A stretch of DNA of 64,000 bases from the NCBI GenBank assembly GCA_051294905.1, contig CM119371.1:14386001-14450000 (forward strand). Direction: 5' to 3'. A model generated the notes under the pieces. The model was given only the letters and a program-made list of their open reading frames with translations. It had not been told where the DNA came from and did not search any database. This stretch comes from Botryllus schlosseri. Taxonomy: Eukaryota. The position numbers and the translations under genes were made by a program. This document shows, piece after piece, positions 4,312 through 63,442 of this stretch (positions within the stretch are counted from its first letter, which is position 1; each line of letters begins with the position of its first letter).

Positions 4312-4837
4312 GTATAGGAGGTATCAAAAAATCGGCTCATCTAATTTTTTGTTACATGGTGTTATTACACCATAAAAATATTTGATTCGAAGATGTTCTG
4401 CAAAGTTTCACAGTTGCTCCATGCCCAGGGGAAATTGTAACAAGGCCATTAATAGACCACAAATATTTACAAAAATAAGTCGGAATACAGAAACATCAAT
4501 ATTGGATACATGTAATATTGTAAAAACCAAGGAAAGAGAATTTGAAACGCTTATGGGCTACGCAACGTCAATGTTACGAAAATCTGAATGCAGGATAATA
4601 GCAGAATACATTCTTCGTGGCCAAGGTTTATATTCCTAGAACCCAAATATTCTAGAGAGTAAAATATTGACTCACATGTCGCGAATCCAGTATTTTCGAA
4701 ATTACTCCTAGACTTCGGGCATCAGCTAAGCCCAGTGCGGAGGGTGAGGAGTAATAGCTGACTCACGTGCATTAAAAATATCGAGGATATTGTTTGATCC
4801 TACTAGCGGCCAAGTCGGCTGTTAAATCAGTCCCGTA

Positions 4838-5127
4838 TTAGAATTGTATCCGGTTACCAGCGCCGGGGTTTCTCGCCTTCATTACCATCCCGGAAAGTTC
4901 GGAAATGCGGGTGCGATTTTCAGGATTTGGCCTTGATTTCTTTAGGCTACTGGCGACGCGCTCTACAGTACTACAAATCATGTTAGAGTACAGAAACGGG
5001 TTTAGGGCGCTGTTGATCGGGAGAAATATAATCGCTGATATCTGATACATTAAAGGCTGTATTCGGTAGCCTGCCAGCGACACCATGGTGGTCATGCACA
5101 TCGGTACCCAGCACAGGAAGTCGGTGA
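4838..5127 (-). CDS. LDLa-GPCR last exon, part after the hAT insertion (TM6-TM7-C-tail-stop)
   Basis: (V)TDFLCWVPMCMTTMVSLAG...SAIIFLPINSALNPFLYS...RIQF*; in frame with the 5' part once the element and one TSD copy are removed. Confidence 0.9.
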
Positions 5128-8100
5128 CTATAAGCCAGTGATGAGCGGAGTCTGCTTTTCGAGACTCCGAGTCCCTCCGACAACTTTGGTCTCTGAGGCA
5201 AAGTCCCTCCGACTCCGGGGATCTCAATCCCAGACTCCGAGATAATCCGAAGAATCTTGTCCAGTCCCCGAAATATATTCAGACCATTGTCGAAGAATCC
5301 CAATCGATGTTTTCGATAGCCTGTCTGATATTCATACCAGTTTTTTTAGTATCCGTGAATTGCCGAACAGTCGCAACATTACTTCTGAGAGTCAAGTTCT
5401 CTCCAACAAAATGGACAGTCAAGCTAATAGAACTGCGACCCTTTAGATCGGTCCACATATCTGTGGTGATGCCAGCCAGCCCATAACACTTGATAGCAAC
5501 TCTTAGTTCCTCTGACAGCTTCTTCTTCAAAGATGAAGCCTCCTCATCGAACTTACGTTTCACCGAAAAATCTGGATGGCAAAACGTCTTCTGCACAACA
5601 CCACGGCAAACCGGCACTTCTTCGGTATTCTCCAGAATCTCCACCCGGCGATCAGTGTTCCCCATGATCAACTTCTCCTTTGATTACTCGCTTACTTGCA
5701 TTTCAACTGCGATCAATTCTTCTTACAAGCTTCGATATGTCTTCGAAGATGCGACGTACCACTTGTCAACTTGTGATGCTTTAGCTGAACATTGCAATTT
5801 TGACATCTCGCAAACCCAGTATACTGGCCGTTATTATCATGCAGCATCAGAGTTAAATCCTTCCACACGTCACTCTTTTTCTGCGTCTTAGTGAGTAACC
5901 CACTTGACGTCGACGGTGCTTCAGCCATTATATTAAAACGACGAAGGAAGACCAGTCAGTTCGAACTAACTACCACAAACACCACTGAAATTGACGATCA
6001 CATCACAGGTTTCAGTAAATTAAGTTCCGCATCGCCATGAAACAGTTGATGGAACTGCACTGCACTAAACATACATGATGCATCACTGACGCACCGATCG
6101 ACGCTCCTTGAAGTTGACTAAATGACTAGTGACTTCCAATTTTGAAGCTGATACATGATATCTGGAATTTGGAGTCTGAGACAGACCAGCAGCAGAAACT
6201 TGATTGCGGTGCTGATTTTTCATATCACATCAAAGTCATTTCTCAACCAAACCAAACATTACATGACGAAAATTCAGAAGAGTTCTGGATGACTGACTAC
6301 GTCAATCAATATTGAAGGAAGCGTAGTTGAGTTGATGCGAGCAGAGCAAAGCAGACGGTTGTAGTTATTTAGTGTGGCTGTTCAGAAATTCGGAATATTC
6401 TGTTTTTACAGGGTAAGATCAGCTTACCTTAGTGATTTATGTATTGTTGAAATCTTTAAAGCGGGCTTAGATGCTGGTATGCCTCTGTGAGCGGATCTTA
6501 CTACCGAAAATTTGTCGCAATGTCATTAAATCATGTAACACATTGCATAAGTTATTATTGTTTCCATCCAGATACTTGCTTGTTGTATGTATATTTCTCA
6601 CAGATATAAAGGTAATATTGATGTAACACTTATTATCGATATCTCTCACTGCAAATTGCAAGTACGATGAAAGTTGCGAAAAGTTATCACAAAAGTGGTA
6701 TCGGATATTATCTTGTTTCAACTGATACCAACGTTGGGAATACATTTTCACAAAATGGACCTATTACTATATTGAATGTCATCAGGATAATGGGATATAT
6801 TCCGTTATGATCATCAACTTGCTGGAAGAATCAGGGTAGCCAAAGGCTGTACCATAGGGAAGCCCCGCTGTATGTTGCTGATTGTAAATGTTTCGCACAA
6901 TTACTGGGGTAGCATGAAAATTAGTCACGAAACAAATACGCAAGGAGGAATATGATGTGACTATAGAAGACTGCAATGACAGCAACGTGGAAGATTCTGG
7001 AGATCTTATCTCATAATATGGTGACATTCAGCAGTGGATTCAAAGACTGCATCTCATTGCAGGGAAAAATGATGCGCTGCGAACGATATTGGGTGTCTTC
7101 AAGTTTGTGAACTACAGACACTGCTCAGCGGAAATGCCTTGCTAGATCACTAGGTTACTCTCCAGTCCCCAATTGCAGTGCAGATGGCTGATTTTTATGC
7201 ACTTGTCATTAATTTTTGCATGTTACCGGTCATATTACAACTTTACAAGGTGTCAACTGTCTGTGTTTTGGTTTGTAATCAATAGTGTCTTCTGGTCAAA
7301 TCTATCGAAAGATATCGGGGGCAAAACTAACAATACTCCATAAAACTCCGGAAAAATATCTGTTGTAAACTCCGACTCCACTCCGGGTATCACAAAATTG
7401 GCAAAACTCCGCTCCGACTCCACTCCGACTCCGCTCCGGTGCTCATCACTGCTATAAGCCGGCTTATGCGGCGCCATAATATGCGGTCTTTTCGGGAGCG
7501 AGATTCGTTGGAGTTTGAAGCTGGGCTTCTGTTGCGACCTGAACGGAATGGATTGGGCTGTATGGGTTTAGTGTACAGGGTTGTAATGACTCGAGTCATG
7601 ACTCGACTCGAGTCATGATTTTCTGGTGACTCGATTTGACTCGAGTCATTTTCACAAAGTAAGGAAATGACTCGACTCGACTCGATTTGATCTGTGTATT
7701 AACGCAACTTGGACTCGAGTCATTGACTCGAGAGTCAGACGACCAACACCGACATTTCATTATAATTTCAAAGAATAGTATAGTAAACACACTGTTGGGA
7801 TTTCGTCTATTGGTATTGATACTTGAAAATCAGAAACTGCTAAACGATCAGAAACTGCTAAAACTGAGGAAAATTAGTTATAATGAATGCGAATCATTCG
7901 ATATCCCGGAACAGAGTTATAAATTTAACAAGATTTAACAAGACTTTAGTTGGAAACTGTGCAGTCAACACAATGTCTTGGACTTGGTGGTGAATTGAAA
8001 ATGACTCGACTTGACTCGAGTCAAAACTATAAAAGTGAGATTGACTTCTGACTCAGAGCCTTGTTACTTGGTTACAACCCTGTTAGTGTCAAACTCTGTT

Positions 8101-11100
8101 CACAGATTAGCACTTCGGAAATAAACATCAACCCCAAAACTAACCTTGACTGCGAAATCCACCCTAAGCGTAACCCAAGAGGTGGTCAGTGACGAAGTAC
8201 CTTTATTTTATCGGAGCACTCTAGTAGAGTTAGCCTACTTGCACCGCATGCTGCTTTAAGTTTAGACTACTTTTACTTCTAATGGGCTATCTCCAGTTTA
8301 AGTATATTAAGCTAAACTTACTCTGCTGCGTTCATGGAAATCGCTTGTTCTACCTACCTTGTTCTACTTGCACTCATGATATGCATATGCGCAGATCGTG
8401 TGTATGTATATCATGAGTCGGTGTATATGCGGCAAAATATCAGCAAGGACAAAAATAAACTACATCCTTTCCTTCGAATTTTACTTGATTGACAACGTTG
8501 ACTAACCATAAATTTTACCCACGGGCTCAAGTGTCGCCGACTGAAATGGCACTTGGTATTGTGTCGCAAGCTCATATGTCCTCAGATCTATGTTAACTAA
8601 TTACATCTATGCCCGTGGTCGACTTCAGAATTCCTACCTAAGTGTTGAAGGTTTATCTGGGCTCCTCCTCGCCATATAATCCGTGTAAGCGGTGTCTTAT
8701 AAAAGCATAGAAGTGGACCGTGTTACAAGTCGGCAGCTACCGAATAAAAATGAATAAAATTGGCCCGGTGTTAATGACCATAGTAGTCGACAAACACCAT
8801 GAATACCACAAACAACAACATCTATGTATGCTGGAAAAGTGAATAGGATTTTTGTTTGGATTCATAAAAAGAAACGGGGTTTTATATTTGAATTCGAGGT
8901 CTGTCGGAACCAGAGGTGGTCGGTAACGGAGTGCTTCTACTTTTTCCGAGTTCTCACGTAGGTGTTGCTTACACTGCTTAGTCACATTTGAATTACTCTT
9001 ATCAGTGAAATTGCATAGTACCAAGAAAAACGACCCTTTACCAAGGGAGACTGAATATATTTTCTACCAATTCTCCCGATTTGCAGTGTCCTAAGTCATT
9101 TTGCGTAAGTCGCAAAGTAGCATATTTTGCAATTCCGAAAGTAGGCCCTTCAGTAAATATGATTTCGGAATTACTTATTGGATACTCTGCAAAGCATTTA
9201 TTTTCTACTTATTCTTTAAGTAGTTTCGACAGGTCTTTGGCCTGACCCGGCCGGGAATCGAACCTACGACCTACAGATCAAGAAGCCGGACGCATCACCA
9301 TTACGCTAATCAGCTCTTACCTAAGTAGTTTTCAAAAGTAGATTTGATCGAGGTTTCCCGTACTATAAAGCGGAAGTGCAAGTAGTCTAAAACATAACCG
9401 CACTTAAGTATGAAGTACAAAAAGTAAAAATACACATCATGAACAACACAATGGAAGTAGGCTTCTTCGTTACGGACCACATCTTGTTAAAATAACTGCG
9501 GATTGCAATTTCGACTTACCTCTGGTCCGCCTGACATTGAATATGTATATCGCCGTATACGCGAACAGGATGTATATAAAAGCTACAAAGTCGAACAGCA
9601 CAACAACAGCGGTATACTCCCAGTTGCTATCCACCACTTTAGGAAATAACCTGCAATGTTCAATTCCGTTATATTATCGGTGATCAAATTAGTCAACGTT
9701 GGTACTTGACTACAAGTAGAAATAGCACGTTCAAACTATACTTAAGTGAATAGTTTCAAAAAATATTTGGTTGAAGGTTCTCATTGTTTTAGCACATCGG
9801 TGGTAGTACTTTTAAAATTACGAGATGAACCTTCGCCACTAACGCGTATGAACTAAAGACACTGCAAATAATTGCACTTTTTAAATATATTACGTTATGT
9901 CATTCGTGTTTTGGGTAAAAATAATCGCCCTACTGATGACACTACCAATAATCAATAATCAGGATCTTCGAAATATATTTTGAGATGATAATAAAGGGAC
10001 AGTTTCTCGTGGCTCTTATGCAGAGGTGGTCAGTAACGAAGTACTTCTACTTTTTCGAAGTACTCAAGTAGTTTTCCTCTACTTCTGGTACTTACTCAAG
10101 TAGATGTGATTTTTGCTACTTCTACTTCTACTTCATAATATTTTGTGATCTACTTACTTACTTTTCGCTATTTTCAGTTTGTCAAGTAGAAGTAATTCAA
10201 TCTTCAAATCAGGAAGATAGCCTGAGGAATTTCGGGGCTGTTTTCACGAAGTATACCAACATTTGTTTCCATATAAGATGAGTAAAGCCCAGAATTTTCG
10301 TTGCACTTCGCGCGCAGTGGATACGGCGTTGCCAGTATGATTTCACGAAAGTATCGATGAATATAATTTAGGTAGCGGGTTGGTGTGATTCCGTTCACAC
10401 AGGGATATCTAGAACTAGATATCTAGATATCCTTGAGTTCACACCACATTGTCGCCCTTCGCCCATATGAAATAATTCGTCGCAGTATAGCTCATCATAA
10501 CGTTTGAAAGTGATATTTCGCAATCTAGCACTCACTTGTCATATCGTATAATCTAGCATGTCCATGGCACTTCCTAACCTGGAAAAGTCGACTCTGACAT
10601 ATTTTGTTAGTTTTAGAGCTGTTTCAGCATACCACCTTTGAAACTTTCTGGACTAAAGGCATGAAAAACGTGTTCCACTTTTAGAACTAGTATTTCTGTT
10701 TCATTTTCAATTCCCAGTATCATATAATTTTTTTGAGTTATAATTAATGTCAGTTCTTTTGTATGGATAACATACATGTTGAAGTATAAAATCAAGTGTA
10801 GTAATGCCTTTAATTTCCTGAAATAAAGCTACACAATATGGCAATTTTACGGTCCACTATATTTTTTATTAACGTTACTATAATCGCGCAAAGTGTTTAC
10901 ACCGTATCCTATACAACTTCTCCGTATTGCTCTTCGACTAAACTTCGGACCTTATAATATGGGAAATGGCGCCATACCATGCTATTTTCTAAAACGTGCT
11001 GTTCGAGAAAACAGGATAAGTGTCGCATTTCCATCCTATCATGTTCATCCCATGATGTGGACGAATGCTGATGCTATCGAAAATTGGATACCTGCTGGTA

Positions 11101-14100
11101 TGCATCAAATGTGAATCTAGCTCGTCATCTTTCGCATAGCTCAATTTGCAACCTTTATACAATCCATGTGAACAAATTTGGATCGTTTTCACAATTACTT
11201 ACTTACTTGAGTACTTTTAAAGTCAGTCAATTCTACTTCTACTTCAAGTAGTTTTAGGTGGCTTATGGAAGAAGTACTTCTACTCGTACTTGAGTAGATT
11301 TTTTCGTCTCTACTTCTACTTCTACTTGAGTAGCTTTCTTGACTACTTTGACCACCTCTGCTCTTATGACAATATTACCGGTAAAAACGATGCAAACACA
11401 TGAAAAACTACTCTATACTTTTCAAAATCATACTGGTAAACAGAAAGTAGTTTAACCTGCAAACTGTTGAAGTAGAAGTAGAATTACCGTAATGACACTC
11501 GAGTAAGCGATGCAAGAAAGCAAGGCCTACTGGAGTAGTCAGAAGAATTAGAAGCACTTCGCTATCCTGACCACTAGGGTGGAGTGAAAAATTAAAATTT
11601 TTGAATTTCAAAAAAGTGTCTTGATATGTGGTGCCAAATAGCAAATAAATAAATTCTGTCATAATTTTGGGTTCGTACGCCTTCTAGTGGTCGTGCACTT
11701 TCACCGAACGAGCCGAAAATAACCAATTTCGCCATATCTTGATAACCGCTTACACTACAAAGCTGGTTTTGGCTTAAAAGATGCAGAAGCAATATGTTTC
11801 TATCTCACTTCCGCAGAACTTACTCTAAGAAATGAACAGAAAAAAAGTTACAAGCAATTTACTGATTTTATAGGTAAAATTAAGCACTGAAGCAGTGGGT
11901 GGGATGTCCAAAGCGTGTAGTGATTGATCTTATGACTGAGCAACATACCCCATCAATTACAACTACTTTTCGAAACTTGCTCAAACAAATGAACCCCCCT
12001 CCACCCACCTCCCTGGGACATCAATAGTGACTTCTAAAACTGTACCTAAAACGGCGTTCATCGGTAGTGCGGCCTCGCGATTTCGATAACTCAAAAACAG
12101 TGACTGTAAAGAAATTTTTTTACCAACATGCTGTTGTAGGGTTTGTATCACATGCATCACGAAGTTCCTGATTGAAAGCACAAAAAAGAGATCCACATTC
12201 AAAACACAAATATCAATTTTATATTGGAAACAAAATATTTGCGAAACTTCAGTTTTTGTCTGATGAGGCCATCTCTACTTTTGAATCCTAAAACATGGGC
12301 AGATGCTTCAGTCACCACTGTCACATGTCTTTCCGCTGCCTGGTTGTGGCCAGAATAACTGAGCTATATTGGTGATGATCTTGGGTTTTCCAGCTCGAGA
12401 TCTGACAGGGTCATGATTGCAGGCGGCTGTTCAATATATCTGATGTTTAAGTTGACAATTTGGAAGATGTAGCCTCGATATTCATAATTGGAATTCGGAA
12501 GAATCTGATGCTGGTGTCAATGTTGCTCTTTTCAGGTTTGGTTTCATTTATATATCCACTTAAGTCGTCAATTGGAACCAGATCTGCAATATTTAGAGGC
12601 TGGGCCGATCGTTCATGCAAGATTGTTGACTCTCACATGCCAAATTTACAAGGTACTATGTGGGAGAGGGACAGGTTTATCATCGAGAAATCTAACTGTC
12701 TTGCTGAATTCAGCATGGAAGTCTATTTTATGTCATGGTTTGTGATAAAAATGCACAATTCCATTGTTGATGACGCAAAAAATTTCTACAATATAGTTTC
12801 CTGTGTTACAAAGCTGCCTGATACATGAATTCGTTCTCTTGCACTATCTATGCTACAAAGAAATGCTTATTTTGATCACCCAGAAAATGTTTAGCTGAGA
12901 ATGCTTGGTGACGAGGAGAAAAGCGTCCGAAGACTTGTAGTTAACAAGATTACAGCTATGCTAGATCAACCACACCGTACTAAATACAAATTTACGACTT
13001 TAAAGAAGGATATATAAATGAAACCAAACCTAAAAACAGCAACATTGACACCAGCATCAGAATTTTCCTAATTCCAATTATCAACATCGAGGCTACATCT
13101 TTCCACTAAATTTTCAACTTAAGCTTCAAGATATTGCACAGATCTCGAGCTGTAAAACCTAAGATCATCACCATTACGGCTATCATCCTTGCCACAACGA
13201 GGCAGTGGACATACATGTGACACTGGTCACTGAAGCATCTGTCCATGTTTTAGGATTCAAACGTAGAGATGGCCTCATCAGACAAAAACTGAAGTCTCAA
13301 AATCATATGAAATATTTCAATACTAAACATGATATTAATGTTTGTGCAGCCTGTACAAATTTTTTCTGTTTCCAATACAGAATTGATGCTTGTGTTTTGA
13401 ATGCGGAATTCCAATTTTAGTGTTTTCAATCAGGAGCCTTATGATACATGTGATACAAACCCTACAACAGCATGTTAGTAAGAAATCTCTTGGCGGTCAC
13501 TGTTTTAAACTTATCACTATATCGCGAGGTCGCACTACCGATGAACGCCGTTGTAAATGCAGTTTTAGCAGTCACTATTCGATGCCCGAGCCCTATTTAT
13601 ACTCGGAGGTGGCTTCATTCGTTTGAGGAGGTTTTGAAAAGTAGTTTTAATTGATGCTCAGTCATAAGATCAATCAATACACGCTTTTCACATCCTACCC
13701 ACTGCTTCAGTGCCTAATTTTACCTATAAAATCAGTAATTTGCTTGTAACCTTTTTTTCTGTTCATTTTTAAGAGTAAGTTCTATGGAAGTGAGATAGAA
13801 ACATGTTGCTTCTGCATCTTTTAAGCCCAAAACCAGCTTTCTAGTGTAAGCGGTTATCAAGATATGACGAAATTGGCTATTTTCGGCTCGTTCGGTGAAA
13901 GTGCACGACCACTAGAGGGTGTACGAACCCAAAATTAGGACAGAATTTATTTATTTGCTATTTGGCACCACATATCTAGACCGTTTTTTGAAATTCAAAA
14001 ATTTTGATTTTTCACTACACCCTACTGACCACCTGTGGTTGTCAAACGTAGCTTCATCATACCTTGGCAAGCAAACGCTGTCCGCAGAATAGTAGCCGTA

Positions 14101-17100
14101 CCACTTGTTGACCAAGTCCGCTTCACCGCGTTTACCGCACACGTCCGAAAACAACTCGCAAAATTTGGCCACCAAATTTGGCCATCCGAACCCGCCAAAG
14201 CTGACAGTCGTTTTTTTAGCAGTGTTCCAAGCCTCGTAAACAAAGCTTCCAAACTCATCCTTCTCGATGATGAAGGAAGTAAAATGGCTGAGCTTCGACA
14301 CAGGCTGGATTGCAAAAGCCATACTGTGGTCCCGTAGCGGGAATAAAGCGACGAAGAGTGGCGACAACCAGCACAGCAGCAGCACTCCGGCAACGACGTA
14401 TCTGACTTTGACCCTTTGGGACTTGAATGGGCTTCGTATGCCAAAGAAGCGGTATGATGCCATCATAACCATGATCATAACTGCGGCTTGGCTTGACAGC
14501 ATCGCAAGCGCGCCTATTCCAGAACATAGCGAATTAGACCTCCACTCTTGCCACTTAGCGCAGTAAATGCCTTTGTACTGAAAGTATAGTAGTAATTCGT
14601 TATTGTCCGGTTTCGGTCAAAGTCTCGGGAATTTGTACCCGATTGATGAACCCCATTATGCGAAGGAGGTTTCCACGAATGGATCATGTGGAGCAAGTCA
14701 ACTTACCGCATGGTTCGAAGGCCGCGATATAGGCGATGAATTACCTAAAGGGTGACGAAGCCCCGAAGGATCCGCCGCGAATTATGGGTTAAGCTTTGCC
14801 CATGCTTTTGCAGAACCAAATCGAATGAGGCATGCTTAGGACTAGGGATGGTGTGAACCTATGAAAGGTTCAGGTTCGTGTGAACGCGAACCTTTTTGAA
14901 AGGTTCAATGTGAACGCGAACGTGAACCTCATGACGTCACGTGACTTCTTAATGCTTATTCCAACCCCAAATTTCGGTGAAATGATAGCCTACATTAGCG
15001 ACGACTCGACCAAATCATAACATGATGCTGAAGTACATATTGACGTTTTAAACGTCGCCAAATGTATCAACTAGGGCATTCAAATGATATAATAATCCCA
15101 GAAGATCACTATCTTCCGTCGCTTGCCAACAATTTCGATGAGAACTTACCAGGGAATATATAAACTTACGCCTTAACGGTCTAGTGAAAACCGGACAATG
15201 TATTCGGCCTCTGAGTATTGATACGCTGATATTGAGCAGAGGGAAAACGGGTTTCTATACTTGCTACCGATATTAGCCCATTCACAAGTTATTCAGCGGT
15301 AGCCAACACCCCGATCGCACGGATTTGGTTTTTATGATACAATAAACATATGATATCAAGATTAACACCCTGCTAGATTTTTACATCAGACAACGATATC
15401 AATTTCATTGATTGGTTGAATAGGCATCATTCGCTGACTAGGCCTACATGTAGTATATTTCGCTCTTGATATTGCGTGATTGCGGGTTAAGCTCACATCA
15501 GAGAGTCGCTAAATATTCACAAACGGAAAGCTGGATATTTCGAGCAAACTTTTCTAACAACAACGTTAAAATTCTTCAGACTGTCAAGGTGCATGCTCGT
15601 TTAGTGTTGATTTTTTAATGCTGCCAGCGCCATGCAAAGAGTGGCCCTCAGTTGAAATGCAATAAATTTCAACCAAAGATGTTATAATGAAGTGAAAATT
15701 GTAATATATGAAAAAGGCTCACAGTGCAGAACCTACCAAGGTTCGTTTGTGAACGTGAACCTCTAAATTTCTGAGGCTCACACACAGAACGTGAACGTGA
15801 ACCTCACGTTCACACCATCCCTACTTGGGACTATGGCAGGAGTCGGCAAACCCTGGCACGCGTGCCAATTGTGGCACGCGAGATGATTTTTCATGGCACG
15901 TCAAATGAATTGACACACACAACATGTTATAATCATGTTTTGTGACAAAAAGACAAACAGAAATGTTCAAAATGGAAAAAGTTCGACGGTGACCAAAATT
16001 ATTTCGTAAATCAATATAAAGTAGAGTTTTTAGAGGCAGAATATATTTATCTTGGAAAATGTTCTCAGCGCTTCGCGCGATTTAATGGGACCGGCTTAAA
16101 TTTCAATGTGTATACCCAAAAACTACATCGAAAAAATACAAAATATGCTTAATATACAGCAATGACTTAAACGTATTAGCAATTATGAGAGAACGGCATG
16201 CTAATGTTGTATGCGAATGTGGGGATGCTTCATTCTATGGGGTCCGCTCTCTGTGCAGCCTGTGGGAGCGCGACTATTAGGCACCGGCACTTCGGCGCTG
16301 GGTATTTCTGAGCTAAGGAGACACCAACATATATAACGTTTCGGAAAACTTGCGACTCCGACTGCCGCATGTAGGCCGACACGTTCGATATTGATATGTC
16401 CAGGGCGTCGAAATGACCTGGGTCGAATATTCCTGTACCCGCAGCCCGAGTCGCACGGTGCAAATGAGACGCACAGATAAAAATAATGAGCCCAGCGACG
16501 AAATGCAACATGCGCGTTCGTCTCACGAAATGAGATTTTATTCAATAGTGTCGTTCGATACGTGTAAGTGATTCCAATAAATTTTGAACAGCGACAATCT
16601 TTACCGCGATCTTTAGAGCTTTATAGACAAACCTATGAGTCAAACCTACTTATGATACAGGGTTGGGTACATTTTTTATGATCAAGCCATATACCGTCGT
16701 ATCAACATTGATGCGCGTGTCGCTATTGGCTATGGAACCAAACACAGAAACTACGAAAGCAAACGCAGTAGATAGCCCTTGGGTGGCGCGATTAAAGTAT
16801 TTTTGCAATAAATTAAGCAAATAATATGTGCATTAACTGATAGATGTTGTGCGGTAGCGACAATGATTTATACTTTTCACGACTCATACTTTAAGAACCA
16901 CTGGCGTAACTGATGCCGTTGCCAGCTTCATTGCTTGAAACGATAAATAAAACAAAACTAAAAATGTTTGGCAGGCCAGTTGGGAATATTTTCGAAATTG
17001 ACATATTTCGGCACGCTGCCCACGAAAGATTGCCGGCCCCTTATATATATATCGACTTTCAATTAAATAAAAGGGCAAAAGAAAACAGGAAACAAAAGAA

Positions 17101-20100
17101 CATCAAGATAATCAGTTTTCGGCCCTTGTTAAGCGCCTCCAACGTGGGCGGTCGTGGGCGTCTTCGAGCGATAGCCCGCGTTGCGCTAGCTCGGTCTCTA
17201 TTGTCGAGCGCCATGTGGTTCTATTCCAGCCACCTCTGCGCCATGGCTCCTGAACTATGGCATTCGCTTGGTCTGTTAGGAGGGCCTGTGACCGAATTAG
17301 TACAGCACTGTGGACTGCGCTAGGCATTTATAAGCAATACACCTTTGAAATAGAAGTAACGCCTTTTTTGCACAATTACAAGTATAAGTAGCGATTACCA
17401 AGACATGCGAAAACTCATATCTAATGTTGTACAAGTTTTATGGTCTAAGTTTCCATTTAATTAACTACCGCAGTAACCGATGGTAAGCTAGTTTCCAAAC
17501 CTGACCGCGATATCTGTGGTTTAACATCAACACTCCTTGCCTACCTGTTAGTCACCCAAGCCAGAACTATACAGGGAAACGCAATGTCAGGTTAATTTTC
17601 GTACATGCATGGTTTGGCAAATATTACGTACAATAAACGATTGCTTTGGTGCGAGCGCTATTCAGATTTATGCCCTTCGCGACCCATGTTTTGAGAACTA
17701 CTGTATATGCTCCATTTCTATAATATACTATGGTCATGGTCAATGTGGATGTTCAGCAAGTACGGCACATTTTGCCATGCTGCTATATCTCAAAACGCGG
17801 AGCTAATCAACAGATTTTAGGATGATATTCGGCACAGCAACCCCCAAATTAGTCAACATTGGCCTCATCCGTTTCAGAAGAAAATGGGCTGTTGATCAGT
17901 GTACGAGCACGAGTGAGTTGAGATAAACTTCGATGGGTATAAAGATGTGATTGATACGTAAAATCAGCAACTAAGTGCTTCTCAGTTGTACTCACTTCGA
18001 TAGCTTTGATTCCCAGTGTCAAAAGATAAATTCCCATGAGGAAATCGGCTATCGCCAGATTTAGAACCAGGATTTTGTTGCAAATACCGACCCTCGGCCG
18101 GTTTGTTGTTATCGTGCCGCGCCGGTGATCGATGCGCAGTTCTATTGAGCATGCACGTATCACAATCGTATTGCCCAGAATCGCCATCAACGCTAACACC
18201 CATGTGCCGACGAGGAAGAATGAATTCTTCATCATGTTTTGACCTGTTTAATAAACATGGTACAAATGTAAATATCAAGCATTTCAGAAAAGAGCTGACA
18301 TCTCTTCATGATAATTCAAAGTATGTAATAAGGAAAATGACCTGGAATTATTATCAGATGTGGTCTGTAACTAATTACTACTATACTACCTTTTCGGAGT
18401 TTTCAAGTTTGTTTTGCCTACTCGAACTTCGTACTCAAGTGGTTATGTTTTCACCCTACTCCTAATTTTACTTTACTGCTTTCTGAGCAATTAGGATTTT
18501 TGATTTTCGGATTTGGCATTTGTGAAGCAGACAGTGATTTTTTAGACACGACCCCTTTATGATAGTGAAAATTTTCGCGCCGCTCTCATCGTCATATCAC
18601 AAAATGTAACCGGAATGTTAGCAATCCCAATGGGTAGTTTGATGGCACGGACGGTCATGACTAGGCAAGTGTTTGTTGCACTAAATCGCGAGAAAGTTGC
18701 GCTTAATTTTAACAAAAGTTGCATTTATAATTATTTTAAATCATCAGGGTATGAGGTACTCATAAGGTTTCGTTGTATTACCTAACAGTTTAAGATTTGC
18801 ATGGTGTCTGCTTGCTCCGTTTCTTTCTTCGCTATGCAATCGACCATACATACATTTTATGTTCGTTAGGTTTGAAACCTACATGAAAGCATTTCGCTAT
18901 CAGCTGCAGAGCAGTTAAGTTTGGCACTTCCCCATTTCCTGGGCCTGGCGAGACGGCAAGAAAATGACGCAAAGGTCATCGAACTTGCCCCAACGGATTG
19001 CAACAAAACTCAGTATTAGCGATTTTAACAAAATGAATAGCCTGAAAAGGTGACTCAGTGATAATCGAATTTTCGGCGGTCTCGACTGGCGTCCACCAAA
19101 TGGGGAAGGAGCTCAAATTTAAACGACTGTGAACCAATCAAGCGATCTATTTACAATGTAAATTTTACATACATATAGTTCAGGAACTTTGGTGCTTGGC
19201 TGGGGTTGTTGAACTTCTAGATTGCACGCCATTGCGTCATAGATAGATATTATTGGGATACAACTAATCAATCAAATAGACAGTGACGTGCGGTCCAATG
19301 AGGCAGGTCAGGCAGTGCCTCACCTGTCGTCTGGGTGAGTAAGTGAAAATCGTGAAAACGCTCGATGAGTCGATGATTTATTGATGTTTTACATCGATGT
19401 TCTTAAATAACTAAATTTGACCATTTTTATCACCCAACATCATCAAATCTGCATAATTATTATTCAAAAACACAGCGCCAAACGTAAGGTGAGGCACAGG
19501 TGAGGCACGGGCGGGTCGTGCCTCACCTACGACTATGCAATTCATCATAAATAGCTCGGTATTAATACCAACTGGTATCAATCATAGGCTATCTTCACAC
19601 TGATTCCGAAAATCCAAATATTAACAGTGTCAGACCACCAGAACCCCCTCAAAATCGCCAATGAAGATGACATTCGGCTTTATTACAGACAATGCCATCG
19701 TAAAGAAACAATGGCCAGGTGAGGCACAAACGAATCTGCCTCATGCACTATTCGCTAACAATTGGACAATCGAAGCGCAGTGAAACGCGCTATCGGTTCC
19801 GGAATCCAACAGTCTTGTAACTAGGAATTATATAGTAGCGACGGCAAATACGCAATGCGGAGCCAATACATTGCTTTACTCATGTAGCTGTTATATATTT
19901 TCCATCCATAGCTACGTTAAATTGTGGTATGTGATAGCTCCTTGCATAAGCTACATTGTCGTTGTTTGTGTCCTTTATTCTGTGTTCGACTGCATATAAC
20001 CCCTATTTGTGGTATGTGATAGCTATGCTTACATAGCCTGCGTTGTCGTTGTTTGGTCAGTGGTGCCACTCCTAGTGTATTTTAACTTGGCCTAGTACAT

Positions 20101-26100: not shown

Positions 26101-29100
26101 GTGAAGCAGCTTTTGTTTGTTCATCATCACGTATTTAGTAACTCAACATGCCCTGAATTGTGTGGCGAGATAGCGCAGTGGTATAATCCGCGGCTGCAAC
26201 ACCAATGGGTGCGGGTTCGAGTCCGACCGACTTCCGAATTCCGATACCTAAGTGTTGGGGGTTTACCTAGGCTCCTCCTCGCCACCTCATCCGCGCCAGC
26301 GGTGTCTTACAAAAGCCTAGAGGTGGGCCGTGCTATAAGTCGGCAGTTACGGAAAATAAGAAGAATATCGGCCTGGTGTAAATGACCATAGTAGTCGACA
26401 AACACCATGAATACCGCAAAACAAACAAACAAATGCCCTGAATTAATCCTAAATAATTATCTGCCAACCAAACTACAATCACCGCCGTTAGCAGAAGCAG
26501 ACTCCTTAACAGCTAATCAGCAAGCCACCACTGTCGTGGTCATTGAAGCATAGACGATTACCAATCGAGAGTCGTTATTTCGTGATTACTAGTCTTGTTG
26601 CCGTTCTATGGGCGCTGGCAAGCCCACTTGTTGGTAGCTACTTTCAAACGCCTTGCGACAAATCTTAACGCATTCCTGTGAGCTTATTCCAGGCTCATTG
26701 CTGTTTTTTTATCAATAATCTATAGAATGAGACATAGATACCCATCATTTTTGAGATTTTTCAAATTTTGGACAGCCGTAGCTGTAGCTGCAGCTGTAGC
26801 TGTAGCAATAACTATGAATTGGAGTTGAATCGCGCACAGCGCGAAACAAATTTCAATTGACTGCAGCTTTGCGCCCGTCTTGAAATGCTTGCACGCCCCT
26901 CTAGTTTGAGAACCACTGATTTAGACATCTATAAAACACTACTGAGAGTTTCATAGGTTACTTAAAAACCTACTTGAGTAGTCTGAAAAAGTAGATTATA
27001 GAATAACTTGGTTTCTCATCCCATTCGTGATCAATTTGTTACGTCCTGCACTCACCGCCGGAGAAACTGTCCACGCTGTAATCACACTCGTCCTTGCCGA
27101 ATTCGCAATCCAACATTCCGTCTCCGAATTTCTCCGGAGGCAACCTGGGCGGCTTACGGTCGTAGCAGTAACGCCTGTCGGGACAATCGACTTCGTCAGC
27201 GTCGTTATCGCAGTTTAGCACCATATTACACCTACAGATAAAGTGTTACATCCACGTTGAAGTATAGCGCCTTTCAATAGTAAGCGTGTGGGCAACCGCT
27301 GACTTTTTCTGAAGGCGACAAAAATGTGAGTTGATTGCTGATTTGGTTAGTAACGGAGTACGTATACTTTTCCAGCGTACTACAGAAGGATTGTACTACT
27401 TGCACAACTTGCTCAGGTGGTAATGTGTTTAAACTATACTTCCATTTCTACCTGAACAGTTTTCAGGTAAAACCACTTACTAATAGGATTTTGAACAGTA
27501 GAAAGCTTTGGCATGAGTTTGCAGCACGATCGCCAGATAATTGTCAAACGAATCCCATCAAATAGTTCCTGTATCACAGTAAATGAAAATATTTTCGAAT
27601 ATTGTACCTATTTGCCGTGTAGTTGGTAATTTTGCGTTCAACGGGCAGATACATTTTGTAATTTTGAAGTTCTGCTTAACTGGTGAATGTATATGTAAGT
27701 TGTATACACCGTACAATCAAATGTACTCTTTGCAAGTACTTACTAGGGTAGTGGTTCTCAACAGCCGATATGCCAGATATTTTAGAATTTTATACATCAA
27801 TTTCAAAATGCAACTTGTTGATAAAACAAATAAATCATCAAGTTTCAAACTGATTCAGACCTTCGCCAGTTTCTTAATTGATAGTATCGTGAGGTAACAT
27901 CATGTCCGTTAATTAACATGTTCGATTTTACTTGAAGTTCATGCCGTCTCCGATGACGAAAAACGAAATGCGAGCGACAACTTGGAGATGACTCATCTTG
28001 GATCTCTTTATCCATCATATTATCGTCAGTTAAAGGTGAGTATAGGGCTATAGGCCTACGCCCCACAGATGCAACAACAATGGATTCTTCGGCGATTGGA
28101 CATTTATACTACAAGGGCACCATTATTATATTCAAGTTGTTATTGATTTGTTTCAACATTCGAACTCTGATTTAATTTGACTTCGGCAATGACATGAGCA
28201 ATAACTCATACTTACAAGTATGTCCGATACCCGGATTAGGCTACAATGCTCAAATGCTCTGATATCTATCTCATATCAATCTTTGTTACATTCTAAAATA
28301 TTCGACCTATAGTTGTGGCATGCCATATGTCCGCCAGATGCAAAATCATAACGTGACAGCTTTTATACGATGTCATGATGCGTTTGTCCTCTCGCATGGT
28401 ATCTATAAATAAATATTGCGACAAATTATGCCAAATACAACAATATGAATTTTCAAATATTTAAAAATGTTACGTTTTCGTGGCAAGCGTACCTATTACA
28501 AAAGTAAATCACATTTTTCACCATGTGTATGGACTGCCAGTCTGCAAGGTCCTGTCCAATAAGGCTTACTTGGAAATACATATAATACCCGGCCGGAGGC
28601 GTCATCAAAACCTAGGAAATTGGCCCGCGAGCGCATTTGAGTTTGAGACCCCTGCTTTACATTTTGGGCTGATTTCAATTTTTGAAGGCCCGCCGGTCCG
28701 CCAAATCTTTTTTGAATGGTTGAGAACTACAGATCTAGAGTACTTTTCCGACCCTTCCATTTAAAGAGGTTATGAGATGTCTTGAAAATCGCAACTTCTA
28801 CTTGTAATTGAGTATAACTAAAGCAACGTCGTTATTACGTAACTCAACACTAAATTTAGCCCTCCGTAAGCTACCAATATCAGTGACTATCAGTGGCGTT
28901 GTAAAGTCGAAAGCATGTATCAGGAACTCGCCTCTCGAGCTTATCATACGTGGAGTTATAGGAATCGTTTCCGCACGCTATCCTATCGCATCCGACCTCG
29001 TCTGTGGCATTAATACAATCCACCAAACCATCGCATATGTAGAATTTGTTGGATTCGTCGTCTATCTTCGCGCGTGCTGCTTCGTCGATGGGCATGCAGT

Positions 29101-32100
29101 TATGTGTGCCAAGCAAAATATGTCTACAGAATTCCGGCGTGTCTTCACATTCCGCCCCGCATTCATCATCCAAATACATGCCACATCTTGGACGTTTATC
29201 GCATTTAGTCACTTCGATGTCGTTCAATCCGTTTGGAGAACACGTAAAAAGGCTTTGTCGTTCAGAAGTTGTGTTTATACATTTCGGACAGTCTTTCAAA
29301 ACAAGGCCATTGATATCTGTGAATTTGGACTTGGCAAGGCAACTGTATCCAACCGTACCGTTACCCCAAGAAATTTGATTACTGTTGCAGTTGCGTTGGC
29401 TCTCGCAAAAGGCGACGGTCTCATTATATTTGTGACGACACAGGCATTCGTCGCTCAAATCCAGACAGTCCACTATGCCGTCACATACCTGGTTGACGTT
29501 GATGATCAGCCCGTCTAAGCACTGGAAGCATTTCTCGATGTCTAGCGCGCCGCTATGCTTAAAACATATGTCGCGTTGATCGGGACAAGTGGAATAGACA
29601 GTCAAAGTCGGATCATTAGCATGACGCCATCGGTCAATCAGTTCACGTGGCAGCGTGCATCGCTGTCCGTTTACTTCTGGTGTTTTGTAGAACGTTTGTA
29701 ACGGACACTTGAACCCTACTTGTTGCCTAGGCTCGTCTTCGCCACCGGCACACGAGCGGGCACCGTCGCAGAAATCGGAGAAATCTTTATCGCGGTTTTC
29801 ATGCTCTCTGCACTTGCCACCGATGTACACGTTCGTGTTGTCGCATTTCATAACGCTCTGGAACCTGACGTCCGGCGAACAGTTGAATTCGTCGTCGTTC
29901 AGGTCGATAACGCAATCGCAGGGCTGAACGAATCATAAGGCGTTGAATGAAGTAAATATGCATCAGTAAAAAAATGTAGGCTCATAGACTCATCAGAAAA
30001 AATAGAAACTCGAATTGAATGAGAAATATTCTACTGTCCTTTTTATATTTATTACATGTTACACGTTATTTAGTTTCAGTTTATGCATGATGAAGTCTCG
30101 GTAAAACCACCTACTTGATTTTGAGAGTTGGGTATCTCATGTTTTTATATGTACTTTTATTATACTGTCAGGAGTCGCTAAATTGTACTTTGGAATTCAA
30201 TTAACTATTGTTATTTATATACAATCTTCGCTCAACATCAAGGCTATTTAAGCTGCACACTGCTCGGAAGGCAGCGACTAAGAAAATGTGCTTTGTACCA
30301 TTGCATATACATTTCCGTGCAGTAGTTCTCGAATTGGGGGCGTGAAAGCTTCAGAGGGAGGCGATTTTTTTCGCGCTCCGCGTGATTTACCACTAGCTTA
30401 TAGTTGTTGCTCTGTGTATTGTCAGACTTTGATATTTCAGAATTCACTCATCAACAGATAGTTAAAATGTATCATGTTTAACATTGTTTCGAATCATGAC
30501 GGCAAATAGATATTTTTTTAATTAACCGTCACTTTCTCATCACCTAATATCCACACATTTACTGAGCAGCATTTATTAACAATAAAATTTGGAAACAAAA
30601 TTAAAATACACAGGAGAATATAGCTAAAAATTTCACTCGGCCCGCCAACGTAGTTTTTACTTCTCATCAGAAAAAATAGAAACTCGAATTGAATGAGAAA
30701 TTTGCTACTGTCCTTTTTATATATACTACATGTTACACGTTATTTAGTTGCAGTTTATGCATGATGAAGTCTCGGTAAAACCACCAACTTGATTTTGAGA
30801 GTTGGGTATCTCTTTTTTTTATATGTACTCTTATTATACTGTAAGGAGTCGCTAAATCGTACTTTCGAATTCAATTAACTATTGTTTTCTTGGATTTCAC
30901 ATGAAACCGATCTAAGCGAGTAGTATGGGCAACTTTTAAACATACATAACATTTTCGGTATCGTGACGTAAAGCAATTCTGAAGCAGATCCTGAAATCTC
31001 CACACTACGTCACAATTCTGCTACCCAAGTTCAAGACTTGTATGCTATCATCAGTTTGCGAACCCATGAAATGTCCTGGTTCGTGTGAACGCGGATGGGG
31101 ACCTATGACGTCACGTGACGTCATATTGCTAATTCAAAACTTTCTATATATTAATGTACAATGTACCTTGTAGATGATACCTAGAACATACTGGATTTTC
31201 AACGTCACATAATGTATCAACTGGAACAATAAAATGCTATATATTTCCAAAAAATCGCTTTGCCAATAATTTCGACGAGGAATCGGCTAGACCGGACAGA
31301 TGTGTTTTTAAGAGTTGAACACCGGTTTACTTGCGCCACATATTATCCAAAAAACAAGTTATACAGTAGCCAACACCAACAACCCGATCGGACGGATTTG
31401 GTTTTTATGATGCAATAAGGATATCAAATAAAGATAGATTCCGCACGCCTGATGATTTTTTACATGAGACATCGATGAATTCTTCTTATCAATTTCGTTG
31501 ATGTAAATAACTGATTGGATGACTAAGCACAATTCACTTAATTCCTGCATGCAGTGTGTATCGTTCTTGCTGTTGTGGCGGGCAAAGCTCACAGAGTCGC
31601 TCAAGATTCACAAACAGAAAGCTGAATATTCCGAGCAAACTTTCGAGCATATAATTTTTAAAATTGGCAAAGGTCGATGCCCGTTTCGTGCTGAATTTCT
31701 TTCCATGCTGCCAGCGCCATGCGGAGAGTGGTCGGAAGTTGAAATGCAATGAATTTCAACCAAAGACGTTGTATTGACTTGAAAAATTGTATTACATGAA
31801 AGTCATATATGTTGCGATCATAGTCAAAGGCGCAGTCGGGAACGTTATGTGTCTTTGCCATCACCTATCTTTGTGGAAATGGATTTTCGGCACTCGTTCA
31901 TATCAAATCGACAGCACAGATTTTCAAGACAGGGCCGTGTATTTCAAGAAAGGCAGCTACGGAATTCGCTTTGAAATAAGACAGGTGGCGGAGAGCTAAA
32001 TTTGAATTAAAACTGTGTGGGTGTGTGCATGTGTGTGTGTGTGTGTGTGTGGCGGGCGGGTTGCGCGGGTCCGTGACTGTTCAACGGGCGTCCACGAAGA

Positions 32101-33236
32101 GAAAAGTTTGAGAACCACTGATGTAGTGCAAAGCTACACAAGTTGGGAGAAATGAGATATATGCGAATTCGTGATCAAACCGCAGCATTGAGACAGGGTG
32201 TAGTGAAATAGATTACTTCGAAAACATACCAAATATGATCTAATCGTGATGTAGAACAGGCATTGGATTCTTTGGGGATCGCATAAAAGGTACGAATTTA
32301 GCATTCCACGTCATTCATACATACTTTTGTGACGTCATCATGAGTGATACTCGAATACTCGACTATAGGATAATATTATAGAATGCAAACATGGAACGGC
32401 AACGACCGATTTTGCAGCTTCGTTTCACTTCGCTGAGGCTGGAGTCCTGGAGAGGTGGAAGCAAATCATGCGTTACGCGAAAAAACTTTCAGTTAGATGT
32501 ATCATGTGCAACGGTAGCACATAGCAAATACATATTTTGGCGATTTTGGTGTCAAATCCCTTCTATTCTCTGAATTTGGCATGGGTCAAACGTACCTGAC
32601 CATAAGATAAATCGCAATATAATTAGGATTATTGCCGTTGGTTGAGACTAAGAAGTCTCAGCATTCATTTTCCTCCGGGTACTTCGCGCCCCCCTTCACA
32701 TGCTTTCTCGACCCCCCACCCCCACCCCCAGTTTGAGAACCACTAACTTGGTAACTCAAGTTTGCCCAGTCCAGGAGGTATATCTACTGCTAGCCAAGTG
32801 CCCTATATATATTAGATGAGATGCAACAAATGGATACAATTTATAATGCGATCCGAGTACACATACCGTGTGTTGGATTATGCAGTTCAATAGACGAAAT
32901 ATTGAGCAATAAAATATGTCTAGAAAATAGCATCCGGTACTTCACCTTATCAAATCGCGCGTAATAGTAAGATGACGTTGTTTCTTCATAATCGTATTCA
33001 TTCGCACTTCCATCATCGGGGAACCAATCGTCGGTTGCGGTGTTATAATTCGAGTCATAATAGTGTTCCGGTAAATATGCAGCTGGGTTGTTTTCATCTC
33101 GTTCTCCTGAACTTTGCTCGCACACACACCAGGCAGTCAGATCTGTAGTAATGACCAGGTGAGTCCAAATTTTTATGCGGCTTCCATGTGCTAGAAACCA
33201 ACTGCAGCGACCTTCATCCTCACAGCAGGACTTCAC
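4838..33236 (-). CDS. Multi-exon LDLa-repeat rhodopsin-class GPCR (RXFP/GRL101-like 7TM, no LRR region); last exon interrupted by a hAT insertion, so possibly a disrupted allele or pseudogene
   Basis: Exons 32946-~33236, 28932-29923, 27056-27231, 17996-18243, 14063-14577, 9520-9650 and 7452-7538 + 4838-5127 join with compatible phases (0,2,1,0,2,1). Motifs: LDLa D-C-x-x-x-x-D-E-x-x-C repeats, TM1 LGN, TM2 NLAIADFLMGIYL, ECL2 VCLP, TM6 TDFLCWVP, TM7 NSALNPFLY. Confidence 0.88.
5136..7451 (-). mobile_element. Internally deleted hAT (Ac/Hermes-like) transposon inserted in the GPCR last exon
   Basis: TIR CAGTGATGAGC; TSD CTATAAGC (5128-5135, 7452-7459); GGAGTC subterminal repeats; BED finger (5713-5928, SDVW..C..C..GTSHLRRH) and catalytic-domain start ITTDMWTD...SLTVHF (5279-5671). 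Confidence 0.93.
7452..7538 (-). CDS. LDLa-GPCR last exon, part before the hAT insertion (ICL3 and start of TM6)
   Basis: gttcag|GT CGC AAC ... RNRSPASNSNESRSRKDRILWRRISRLI, then the transposon TIR. Confidence 0.85.
7576..8082. mobile_element. hAT MITE with GACTCGAGTC repeats
   Basis: TIR CAGGGTTGTAA / TTACAACCCTG; TSD TTAGTGTA / TTAGTGTC. Confidence 0.85.
8520..8820 (+). mobile_element. SINE copy (same family as 26160-26432), diverged head
   Basis: Body cctaagtgtt...ggctcctcctcgcc...gaccatagtagtcgacaaacaccatgaatacc plus (CAA)n tail aligns to the 26160 copy. Confidence 0.8.
9020..9316 (-). mobile_element. tRNA-derived SINE (second family)
   Basis: On the minus strand: A box TAGCGTAATGG, B box GGTTCGATTCC, then GGCCGGGTCAGGCCAAAGAC and a CCCTTGGTAAAGG core-like motif. 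Confidence 0.65.
9520..9650 (-). CDS. LDLa-GPCR exon TM5 (absent from the ORF track)
   Basis: ttgcag|G LFPKVVDSNWEYTAVVVLFDFVAFIYILFAYTAIYIFNVRRTR G|gtaagt; 131 nt, phase 2 to 1. Confidence 0.9.
10021..11360. mobile_element. hAT MITE with TACTTC subterminal repeats
   Basis: TIR CAGAGGTGGTCA / TGACCACCTCTG; TSD CTCTTATG (10013-10020, 11361-11368). Degenerate relatives at ~8178-9485 and ~11440-14037. Confidence 0.9.
11575..14024. mobile_element. Foldback hATm-like element with ~1-kb inverted arms containing transposase C-terminal sequence
   Basis: TIR TAGGGTG; TSD CTGACCAC (11567-11574, 14025-14032); arms ~11575-12572 and ~12989-14024. Plus strand decodes SWFVIK...AKNFY, NAYFDHPEN and PCHNEAV..HVTLVTEAS..V.G...RDGLIR. 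Confidence 0.88.
14063..14577 (-). CDS. LDLa-GPCR exon ECL1-TM3-TM4-ECL2
   Basis: tttcag|YKGIYCAKWQEWRSNSLCSGIGALAMLSSQ...SYRFFGIRSPF...GYYSADSVCLP AG|gtatga; 515 nt. Confidence 0.92.
14843..15823 (+). mobile_element. TAGGGATGGTGTGAAC-family hAT MITE, full copy
   Basis: TIRs at both ends; TSD CTTAGGAC / CTTGGGAC; GTGAAC subterminal repeats. Confidence 0.9.
15837..17041. mobile_element. Degenerate hAT-Charlie MITE
   Basis: Left end CAGGAGTCGGCAAAC...GGCACGCGTGCC; right end ...GGCACGC...ATTGCCGGCCCCT. TSD not clear. Confidence 0.55.
17075..17322 (-). mobile_element. 3' fragment of RTE-like LINE
   Basis: RRGGWNRTTWRSTIETEL...LEDAHDRPRWRRL* resembles the RTE ORF2 C-terminal motifs R.RGRP..TW and A.DR..WR. 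Confidence 0.6.
17996..18243 (-). CDS. LDLa-GPCR exon TM1-TM2
   Basis: aaacag|GT CAA AAC ATG ... WVLALMAILGNTIVI ... LNLAIADFLMGIYLLTLGIKAIE|gtgagt; 248 nt. Confidence 0.92.
20593..21503 (-). mobile_element. CGGBP1-like hAT deletion derivative inserted in the Penelope ORF
   Basis: TIR TAGGGCCATT / AATGGCCCTA; TSD GTAACGTG (20585-20592, 21504-21511); zinc finger KVSCQVCSCIVKHEKRFFVEQHLATLKH; ATGACTT subterminal repeats. Confidence 0.88.
22236..22272 (+). ncRNA. Candidate minimal type I hammerhead ribozyme (U3-A8 variant) in the Penelope 3' region
   Basis: aactc-TTGAAAA-g.aggcacc.c-GAAA-agtct-TC-gagtt: stem I aactc/gagtt, core with a C3U/G8A compensatory change, minimal stems II and III, AATAAA directly downstream. 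Confidence 0.6.
23840..24704. mobile_element. hAT-Charlie MITE
   Basis: TIR CAGAGGTCTCAAAC / GTTTGAGACCTCTG; TSD CTTTAGAG. Related copies at ~28200-28654 (reverse) and from 59000. Confidence 0.9.
24902..26035. mobile_element. Non-autonomous TIR element with ~200-bp inverted arms and a telomere-like (CCCTAA-rich) core
   Basis: GTGAACTCGG / CCGAGTTCAC repeats at the ends; arms 24940-25110 vs 25840-25950 are inverted; degenerate CCCTAA tract ~25245-25600. Confidence 0.75.
26160..26432 (+). mobile_element. Full-length tRNA-derived SINE
   Basis: A box TAGCGCAGTGG, B box GGTTCGAGTCC, (CAAA)n tail, 12-bp TSD ATGCCCTGAATT (26148-26159, 26433-26444). Other copies at 8520-8820, ~47210-47345 (minus) and ~50636-50712. 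Confidence 0.9.
27056..27231 (-). CDS. LDLa-GPCR exon (last LDLa modules and linker)
   Basis: ctgtag|G TGT AAT ... CNMVLNCDNDADEVDC...GDGMLDCEFGKDECDYSVDSFSG G|gtgagt; 176 nt, phase 2 to 1. Confidence 0.9.
28932..29923 (-). CDS. LDLa-GPCR large Cys-rich exon (several LDLa modules)
   Basis: Acceptor ttcag|CCC TGC; 992 nt open, with FCDGARSCAGGEDE, VCDGIVDCLDLSDEC and ICDGLVDCINATDEVGC; ends at AG|gcgagt (GC donor, phase 2). Confidence 0.88.
29990..30886. repeat. Local direct duplication of ~225 bp (29990-30213 and 30664-30886)
   Basis: ctcatcagaaaaaatagaaactcgaattg...caattaactattgtt occurs twice with few differences. Confidence 0.9.
31060..31868 (+). mobile_element. Old degenerate copy of the TAGGGATGG MITE family
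   Basis: Internal blocks (atgacgtcacgtgac, ggatttggtttttatgat, atgctgccagcgccatgc) are colinear with 14843-15823. Confidence 0.7.
32946..33236 (-). CDS. LDLa-GPCR putative N-terminal exon (acidic, Tyr-rich); 5' boundary and start codon unresolved
   Basis: Open frame ...EHYYDSNYNTATDDWFPDDGSANEYDYEETTSSYYYARFDK ends at AAG|gtgaag (phase 0), matching the phase-0 acceptor at 29923. No in-frame ATG is seen. Confidence 0.55.
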
Positions 33237-33275
33237 CCGTCATAAGCAGGTGGTATTTTTCTAATCGTGCTATAG

Positions 33276-62543: not shown

Positions 62544-63442
62544 TAGGGCAATTTTTTTTGACATGTCAAAAAAAGTCAAAATTATGTCAAAATTGTAGCG
62601 TTAGGTCAAAATTTGTCAAAATTGTTTACAAAATTTGTCAAAATTGTTTACAAAGTCAAACATTTTTTGACCTCTGCATTTCGTTTGTATCGTAGATTTT
62701 GCGCTGTCGGTGAACTTATCATTTGATATTTTACAGGTTGTAGCCTACTTTATAGGCCTACCGTTGTAAACGGACAATCGCCTGCTCATTGTGAATCATA
62801 AAGGGTCAAATGAAACAAATATGGACATGGTTTTATGGTCAACGTACCACAATATCCTAGCTGAAGCAAGAATGCTTGGACATTGCATGGTTCTTATATC
62901 AAGAAGCGCAAGCTTACAAATTGTGATATAGACAACATTGTCAGAATGAAGCAACACGGTTTGTCACCAGCAGTGTGCACACAACTTGAGTGTTGTCAGC
63001 CAACAAATGCTGCTGTTGAACGTTCTTTCTCCGTTCTTGGCAAGCTACGTAGTAAGGACAGACACTTTCTACCCGAGAATGTAGGAAAGGATCTTTCGTT
63101 GTACTACAACAAATTTTAATTATTTCCACCAGAATACGTAATGTAACTACTGGAATTCTTCATAGGGCCAGATTTCGTTAAAATACTAGTTTTTCATGTA
63201 AAAATCTGTCAGTTTTTGAGCCAAAAACGTTTTTTCAGGCCAATCTACTTTGTAAGGACAGACAGTTCCAACCAGAAATAAAGATAAGTAGCACAATTTT
63301 AACATTATATGCGAAAACACCTAATTTGCATACGTGAGGTCAAAATTTGGTCAAATTTCAGTTTTTTTAAGTCAAAAAAGGTCAAAATTTAGATTTTTTA
63401 GGTCAAAATCTTCCATGTTTTAGGTCAAAAAAAATTGCCCTA
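62544..63442 (+). mobile_element. hAT deletion derivative with transposase C-terminal dimerisation motif
   Basis: TIR TAGGGCAATTTTTTTTGAC; TSD GTCATTAC; QPTNAAVERSFSVLGKLRSKDRHFLPENV...YYN at 62883-63119; GTCAAAA repeats. Confidence 0.9.

Follow-up and report, generated by a model that had tools for sequence, protein, structure and literature searches.

The window, a stretch of 64,000 nucleotides from Botryllus schlosseri, carries on its minus strand the exons of a receptor gene whose last coding exon is interrupted by a 2,316-bp transposable element (Table 1). By its architecture and similarity, the interrupted gene appears to be an LDL-A/7TM receptor of the ascidian LDLRR-GPCR type. The best homologue among 198 matches was Styela clava LOC120337813 (XP_039261637), with 51% identity over the TM3-4 exon, and this protein matched each of the seven downstream coding segments, among them the stretch from 7538 to the insertion. 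The exon at 27231-27056 and the TM1 exon matched adjoining residues of LOC120337813 (to about 504 and from 504, respectively), a Pfam scan of 12 ORFs gave no LRR match, and the top PDB match for both TM exons tested was RXFP1 (7TMW, E 3e-5). In the available text of Kamesh et al. 2008 (PMC2396169), the ascidian LDLRR-GPCRs are described as an expanded orphan family, with which, as with LOC120337813, the gene shares LDL-A repeats joined directly to a relaxin-receptor-like 7TM domain without LRRs. It differs from them in that the window copy is broken in TM6 and has no recognisable start codon.

With the element and one TSD copy removed, RRISRLI joins VTDFLCW in frame and the exons from 29923 to 4838 form an open frame of 812 residues, including the GC-AG donor at 28932 (GAG/GCGAGT), which is in phase with the next exon. 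The preliminary description had placed a 2,316-bp hAT with an identical TSD between these two peptides and had read the downstream exons as otherwise open, and both statements held. A word-index protein search with the TM3-4 ORF and the TM6-7 piece gave no match, and no allelic protein of the same species was found in it. An exact search of metagenome contigs with the TSD and downstream flank returned 0 hits, while a protein scan of metagenome contigs returned 24 loci with at most 47% identity, none of them from the receptor locus.

Table 1. Features of the interrupted receptor gene and of the inserted element, in window coordinates and in the order of the host gene
Feature	Position	Strand	Remarks
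Candidate 5' exon	32946..33239	-	Open frame, phase-0 donor; 5'-most recognisable exon
Large LDL-A repeat exon	28932..29923	-	Pfam Ldl_recept_a 25.1 bits (cut-off 24.1); GC-AG donor
Last LDL-A-like ectodomain exon	27056..27231	-	Spliced straight to TM1, no LRR
TM1-TM2 exon	17996..18243	-	
TM3-TM4-ECL2 exon	14063..14577	-	
TM5 exon	9520..9650	-	Phase-1 donor at 9520, GAG/GTAAGT
Separate hAT-type MITE, 507 bp	7576..8082	.	TSD 7/8; end ~37 bp before native acceptor 7538
Last GPCR exon, first part: ICL3 and cytoplasmic half of TM6	7452..7538	-	tblastn with Styela clava homologue, E 3e-4; native acceptor 7538 intact
TSD, upstream copy (8 bp)	7452..7459	-	
Non-autonomous hAT element, 2,316 bp	5136..7451	-	Host-gene orientation; TSD, TIR, transposase remnants
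Left TIR, 11 bp	7441..7451	-	Followed by GGAGT-type subterminal repeats 7369-7439 (repeat family D4)
Premature stop on read-through from 7538	7390..7392	-	
BED zinc-finger ORF remnant, 71 aa	5716..5928	-	Stop at end; Pfam zf-BED 17.4 bits, E 0.0047
Transposase remnant, 134 codons	5282..5683	-	Matches Hermes residues 145-229; phmmer against PDB, E 0.006-0.007
Right TIR, 11 bp	5136..5146	-	Subterminal repeats 5162-5261 (repeat family D3)
TSD, downstream copy	5128..5135	-	Last two bases are the in-phase AG before 5127
Last GPCR exon, second part: remaining TM6, TM7, C-tail, stop	4838..5127	-	

The element is flanked by two copies of the 8-bp TSD GCTTATAG (7459-7452 and 5135-5128, minus strand) that match at 8/8 positions, and its 11-bp TIRs are perfect, a structure that far exceeds chance. 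A complete transposase ORF (about 600 aa, the criterion for an autonomous hAT) is absent, and the element instead carries a 71-codon and a 134-codon remnant, each with stops. The BED remnant scores under the Pfam zf-BED cut-off of 20.6 bits, and the top four PDB matches of the transposase remnant by phmmer were all Hermes. No catalytic core was found in the element beyond about Hermes residue 230, and because this rest of the core is absent the element is classed as non-autonomous. The 8-bp TSD, the short TIRs with subterminal repeats and the hAT-type transposase sequence, although present only as remnants, place the element in the hAT superfamily. A word-index protein search with the transposase remnant gave no match. 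The remnant ORF and the receptor TM6-TM7 (5683-4841, minus strand) share a frame, with a single TGA at 5281-5279 between them.

The element family is present in very many copies: in sequencing run X2, the summed contig depth was about 10,000-22,000 over the element interior versus 10-33 in the flanks, figures that are not convertible to a copy number. Four contigs of run X6 tile the element from 5198 to 7184 with 18 differing letters in 2,067 (~0.9%). Because the deleted form is tiled in this way, it is the structure of the family as a whole, and the copy at 5136-7451 lies ~1% off the dominant family sequence. A contig of run X5 joins 5273 to 7112, and depth in this run is several-fold higher at the ends of the element than in its middle, which suggests shorter MITE-like derivatives of the family. 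Among the RNA reads of the family in run X23, 9 of 36 stop at 5931, a position that lies 3 bases ahead of the BED-finger ATG and may mark a transcript start or a trans-splice site of family copies elsewhere.

In run X2, which may be the source sample of the window, flank pieces identical to the window were found at a depth of 8-12 together with a second letter set at similar depth. Run X5 shows this second set at full depth. Two flank contigs of this run depart from the window at 19/202 and 24/201 positions. Since the copy lies ~1% from its family while the flank haplotypes differ several-fold more, the simplest reading is that the insertion postdates the haplotypes and is limited to a single lineage. 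From these divergence figures the insertion is probably young and haplotype-specific, and the recent origin proposed beforehand is supported by the intact TSD and TIRs, the distance of about 0.9% from the family and the far greater divergence of the flank haplotypes. Haplome-specific hAT insertions are common in another ascidian, Ciona savignyi (872/4,111, in the available text of PMC1868934). It is highly improbable that the element is instead a product of faulty assembly, or that it has reached fixation in the species and is not polymorphic. Such readings would accommodate the contig pieces, of which 0 among the 24 listed bridge either element junction, and the joints, among which the empty site was not found in the 15 listed of 369, all 15 from repeats. 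However, perfect TSDs and TIRs in an exactly rejoining frame are not a product of mis-assembly, and fixation is hard to reconcile with a copy so close to its family between flank haplotypes that are ~10% apart in the two X5 contigs.

In the raw RNA run X23, of which about 6% was read (1,934 million letters), depth was zero on the TM5 exon and on 4762-5123, and the run is therefore uninformative on junctions. Contig run X6 had a depth of 3.6-5.4 in two exon-containing bins, with no junction among those listed, and the lack of an RNA run among the 24 matches listed for the large LDL-A exon has no bearing on expression. Four of these 24 runs were mapped to positions 4400-9800.

We then evaluated the splice sites around the insertion, with strengths expressed as simple consensus counts and not as scores of a trained splice model. 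With 11/16 pyrimidines, the native acceptor at 7538 has the highest value among the six acceptors of the gene (6-11), and read-through from it adds 20 residues before the stop at 7392-7390, just as the preliminary description had it for normal splicing. That description had also pointed to two AGs in phase with the TM5 exon. The phase-1 end of this exon and the phases of 5151 and 5127 were confirmed, but the count of two was incomplete, as 5190, 5154 and 5070 had been overlooked, and the in-phase AGs reachable from donor 9520 are thus 5 of the 292 AGs between 9500 and 5050. On the minus strand of the window, 47% of 29,700 positions offer one or more in-phase AGs with an open frame and 21% offer two or more, so that their presence is not beyond chance. 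Individually, acceptor 5151 is weak, with 7/16 pyrimidines and two AGs just upstream, and 5190 is a GAG lying two bases behind an out-of-phase CAG. Acceptor 5127 has 11/16 pyrimidines (9/16 for the same AG in the host context) and no AG upstream, and for these reasons some use of it is plausible.

Removal of the element as an intron was rejected for want of a usable donor before the stop: the best donor among 98 in-frame combinations fits 3/7 consensus positions, in comparison with 5-6/7 for the six real donors. Five donor-like sites (5-6/7) lie in the element downstream of the stop, of which 6428 and 5557 reach 6/7, and AATAAA is absent from the element. Splicing from donor 5557 to the AG of 5151 or 5127 would keep the phase.

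The predicted products were compared with 74 homologues, obtained from 150 listed proteins by leaving out 73 without the TM6 and TM7 motifs and 3 that were not anchorable. The span from Y5.58 to D6.44 is 32-89 residues (median 37) in 74/74 of these. The empty allele has 44, and the 5190, 5154, 5151 and 5127 forms have 36, 24, 23 and 15, respectively. Judged by class A helix geometry, a span of 15 residues is too short to accommodate the TM5 end together with a turn and the initial half of TM6, and 23 residues would be at the geometric limit. Chemokine receptors have a span of roughly 29-30, and the 23 of the 5151 form is shorter than this as well. Position 6.33 is M/L/I/F in 73/74 homologues, 6.36 is R/K in 70/74 and 6.37 is I/V/F/M in 74/74. 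The empty allele has L, R and I at these positions, whereas the 5151 form has R, A and H, and 6.36 and 6.37 are likewise A and H in the 5190 form. Of 151 two-step splice paths through cryptic exons, not one brought back both 6.36 and 6.37. The 5151 and 5127 forms are predicted from the sequence to lose the cytoplasmic half of TM6 and not just ICL3. The read-through tail is not hydrophobic, with a best 19-residue mean of 0.49 versus 1.54 for TM6.

Taken together, these results are best explained by a simple loss-of-function insertion allele, in which a high-copy, non-autonomous hAT family has recently placed a copy in the last coding exon on one haplotype, and we place the probability of this reading at roughly two in three. 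The element anatomy, the broken frame and the early stop are direct observations, and the knockout that had been listed among the possible outcomes is supported. Donor 9520 would still join acceptor 7538, and translation would end 60 bases into the element, leaving TM6 incomplete and TM7 absent. A downstream exon junction and a very long 3' UTR are classical NMD triggers, and the mRNA is probably degraded by NMD because there are either strong donors downstream of the stop or, when unspliced, a 3' UTR exceeding 2.5 kb. A five-helix protein that survived would probably be retained without activity. If the TSD AG (5127) were used now and then, the TM5-TM6 stretch of the product would be too short for seven helices, and the insertion allele is probably carried beside intact alleles. 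A loss-of-function insertion here is a fresh instance of a well-known type of event.

Of the readings that would leave a product with some activity, a stable read-through mRNA encoding a five-helix receptor, which could act as a decoy or dominant negative through its intact LDL-A ectodomain, is improbable. It would be helped by the position of the stop in what was the last exon and by an unspliced transcript having no downstream junction, but the donor-like sites downstream of the stop and the non-hydrophobic new tail speak against it, as do the TM1-5 fragments of the M2 receptor, which alone did not bind ligand according to the available text of PMC11093360. In that same portion of the source, TM1-5 and TM6-7 can reassemble when the M2 receptor is cut in ICL3, a situation resembling the present one in that a stop lies between TM5 and TM7 with the coding sequence for the tail still downstream. 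The M2 cut leaves TM6 whole, whereas here it lies inside TM6 and no ATG precedes the tail in the last open frame of the element, and reassembly is unlikely because the cut falls within TM6. We consider it very improbable that the element end serves as a new 3' splice site, through a branch site and pyrimidine tract on the TIR side with the TSD AG or through an AG within the end, for a seven-helix receptor with a transposon-encoded cytoplasmic half of TM6, or that a TM1-5 piece reassembles with a TM6-7 piece made from element-driven transcripts through donor 5557; if true, either would represent a segregating, transposon-rewired GPCR allele in the making.

The receptor with a shortened ICL3 and altered coupling that the preliminary description had envisaged, produced by rescue splicing to an AG at the element end, fared poorly in this comparison, and we regard a working seven-helix receptor of this kind as very doubtful. 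Four in-phase AGs (5190, 5154, 5151 and 5127) would permit it, the pyrimidine tract of 5127 is fair and supplied by the element end, the span of the 5190 form is normal at 36, and TSD-derived 3' AGs are known in introners (in the available text of PMC11282704). Nevertheless, the intact acceptor at 7538 would have to be skipped and in-phase AGs are expected by chance. The 5127 span is too short for two helix ends, the spans of 5151 and 5154 fall under those of all 74 homologues, half of TM6 would be lost with 5127 or 5151, and the 5190 GAG stands behind an out-of-phase CAG and leaves A and H in place. Were it true, a DNA transposon would be rewriting the G-protein face of a GPCR.

Comparison with known insertions agrees in part with each of two systems. 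Introners, in the portion of PMC11282704 that is available, use a donor that the element supplies, and their AG may come from the TSD. A 3' AG from the TSD and element end is present here (5127), but there is no 5' donor at the element end and no precise in-frame removal. With non-autonomous hAT elements, which are Ds-like deletion derivatives, and with Hermes, whose transposase is the nearest solved relative, the element shares the 8-bp TSD, the short TIRs, the subterminal repeats, a BED-finger remnant and the piece matching Hermes residues 145-229. Its exon insertion giving a mutant allele parallels the Ds alleles of maize. When Ds is spliced out of an allele, the donors used lie close to the end of the element, whereas no such donor was found here. 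The splicing material in the available text of PMC2921059 concerns the introns of Ac itself, and our search found no direct literature source for a minimal ICL3 length, for 5-TM variants or for Ds splicing from host mRNA.

The 5' end of the gene bears on whether the allele was intact before the insertion. The candidate 5' exon at 33239-32946 contains no in-frame ATG, a point that the preliminary description had not raised, and a BLASTP comparison of it with the Styela clava homologue was not significant. An upstream search yielded one Met-containing phase-1 exon with a donor of at least 6/7, which encodes a charged peptide not resembling a signal peptide, and no convincing signal-peptide exon was found upstream of 33239. 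The missing ATG may reflect an overlooked short exon or a second lesion in the allele. Within the candidate exon, a partly hydrophobic stretch follows an ATA at 33176, and AGs resembling phase-1 acceptors are found at 33190 and 33142; a 1,452-bp element with an identical TSD (33276-34727) ends ~37 bp upstream of it. It is unlikely, yet deserves consideration, that the allele was already dead through a lost start codon or a broken first exon, with the element as a passenger in a decaying copy. The missing ATG and the single unconvincing Met exon would fit such a history, as would the coding differences to other haplotypes (at least seven listed), of which 4/7 are non-synonymous, including 4/5 in the TM5 exon. 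These seven sites are, however, too few to judge selection, the 812 downstream codons are open with intact splice sites, and the AGs at 33190 and 33142 would suit an overlooked short upstream exon.

If the allele is indeed a simple loss-of-function insertion, it adds an ordinary case of transposon insertion to an ascidian genome that is rich in repeats and highly polymorphic. It could be of practical use as a natural probable null for an orphan LDLRR-GPCR, and gene annotation on the insertion haplotype will be mis-modelled. The window contains 12 elements with TIRs and 8-bp TSDs, the 2,316-bp element included, of which 10 have identical TSDs. Because there are 12 such elements, an insertion into an exon is about an even chance: with a coding length of 2,733 bases for the receptor gene, the probability that at least one of them falls in the coding sequence is ~0.5.

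The 11 further elements, nine with identical TSDs, are located at 3095-4311, 7576-8082, 10021-11360, 14843-15823, 19281-22641, 20593-21503 (nested within the preceding one), 23840-24704, 33276-34727, 54564-55344, 61328-61989 and 62544-63442. The TSDs of the TIR elements in the window show a preference for T at position 2 and A at position 7. A frameshifted LINE-like reverse transcriptase remnant (Pfam RVT_1, E 2e-4) was found on the plus strand at 55637-57115; near 56540-56620 it contains a tandem duplication. A long degenerate tandem array of AT-rich units occupies about 36960-38560. Finally, an inverted pair of repeat copies was noticed by eye at about 11700-12000 and 13600-13920, in the intron between the TM3-4 and TM5 exons.
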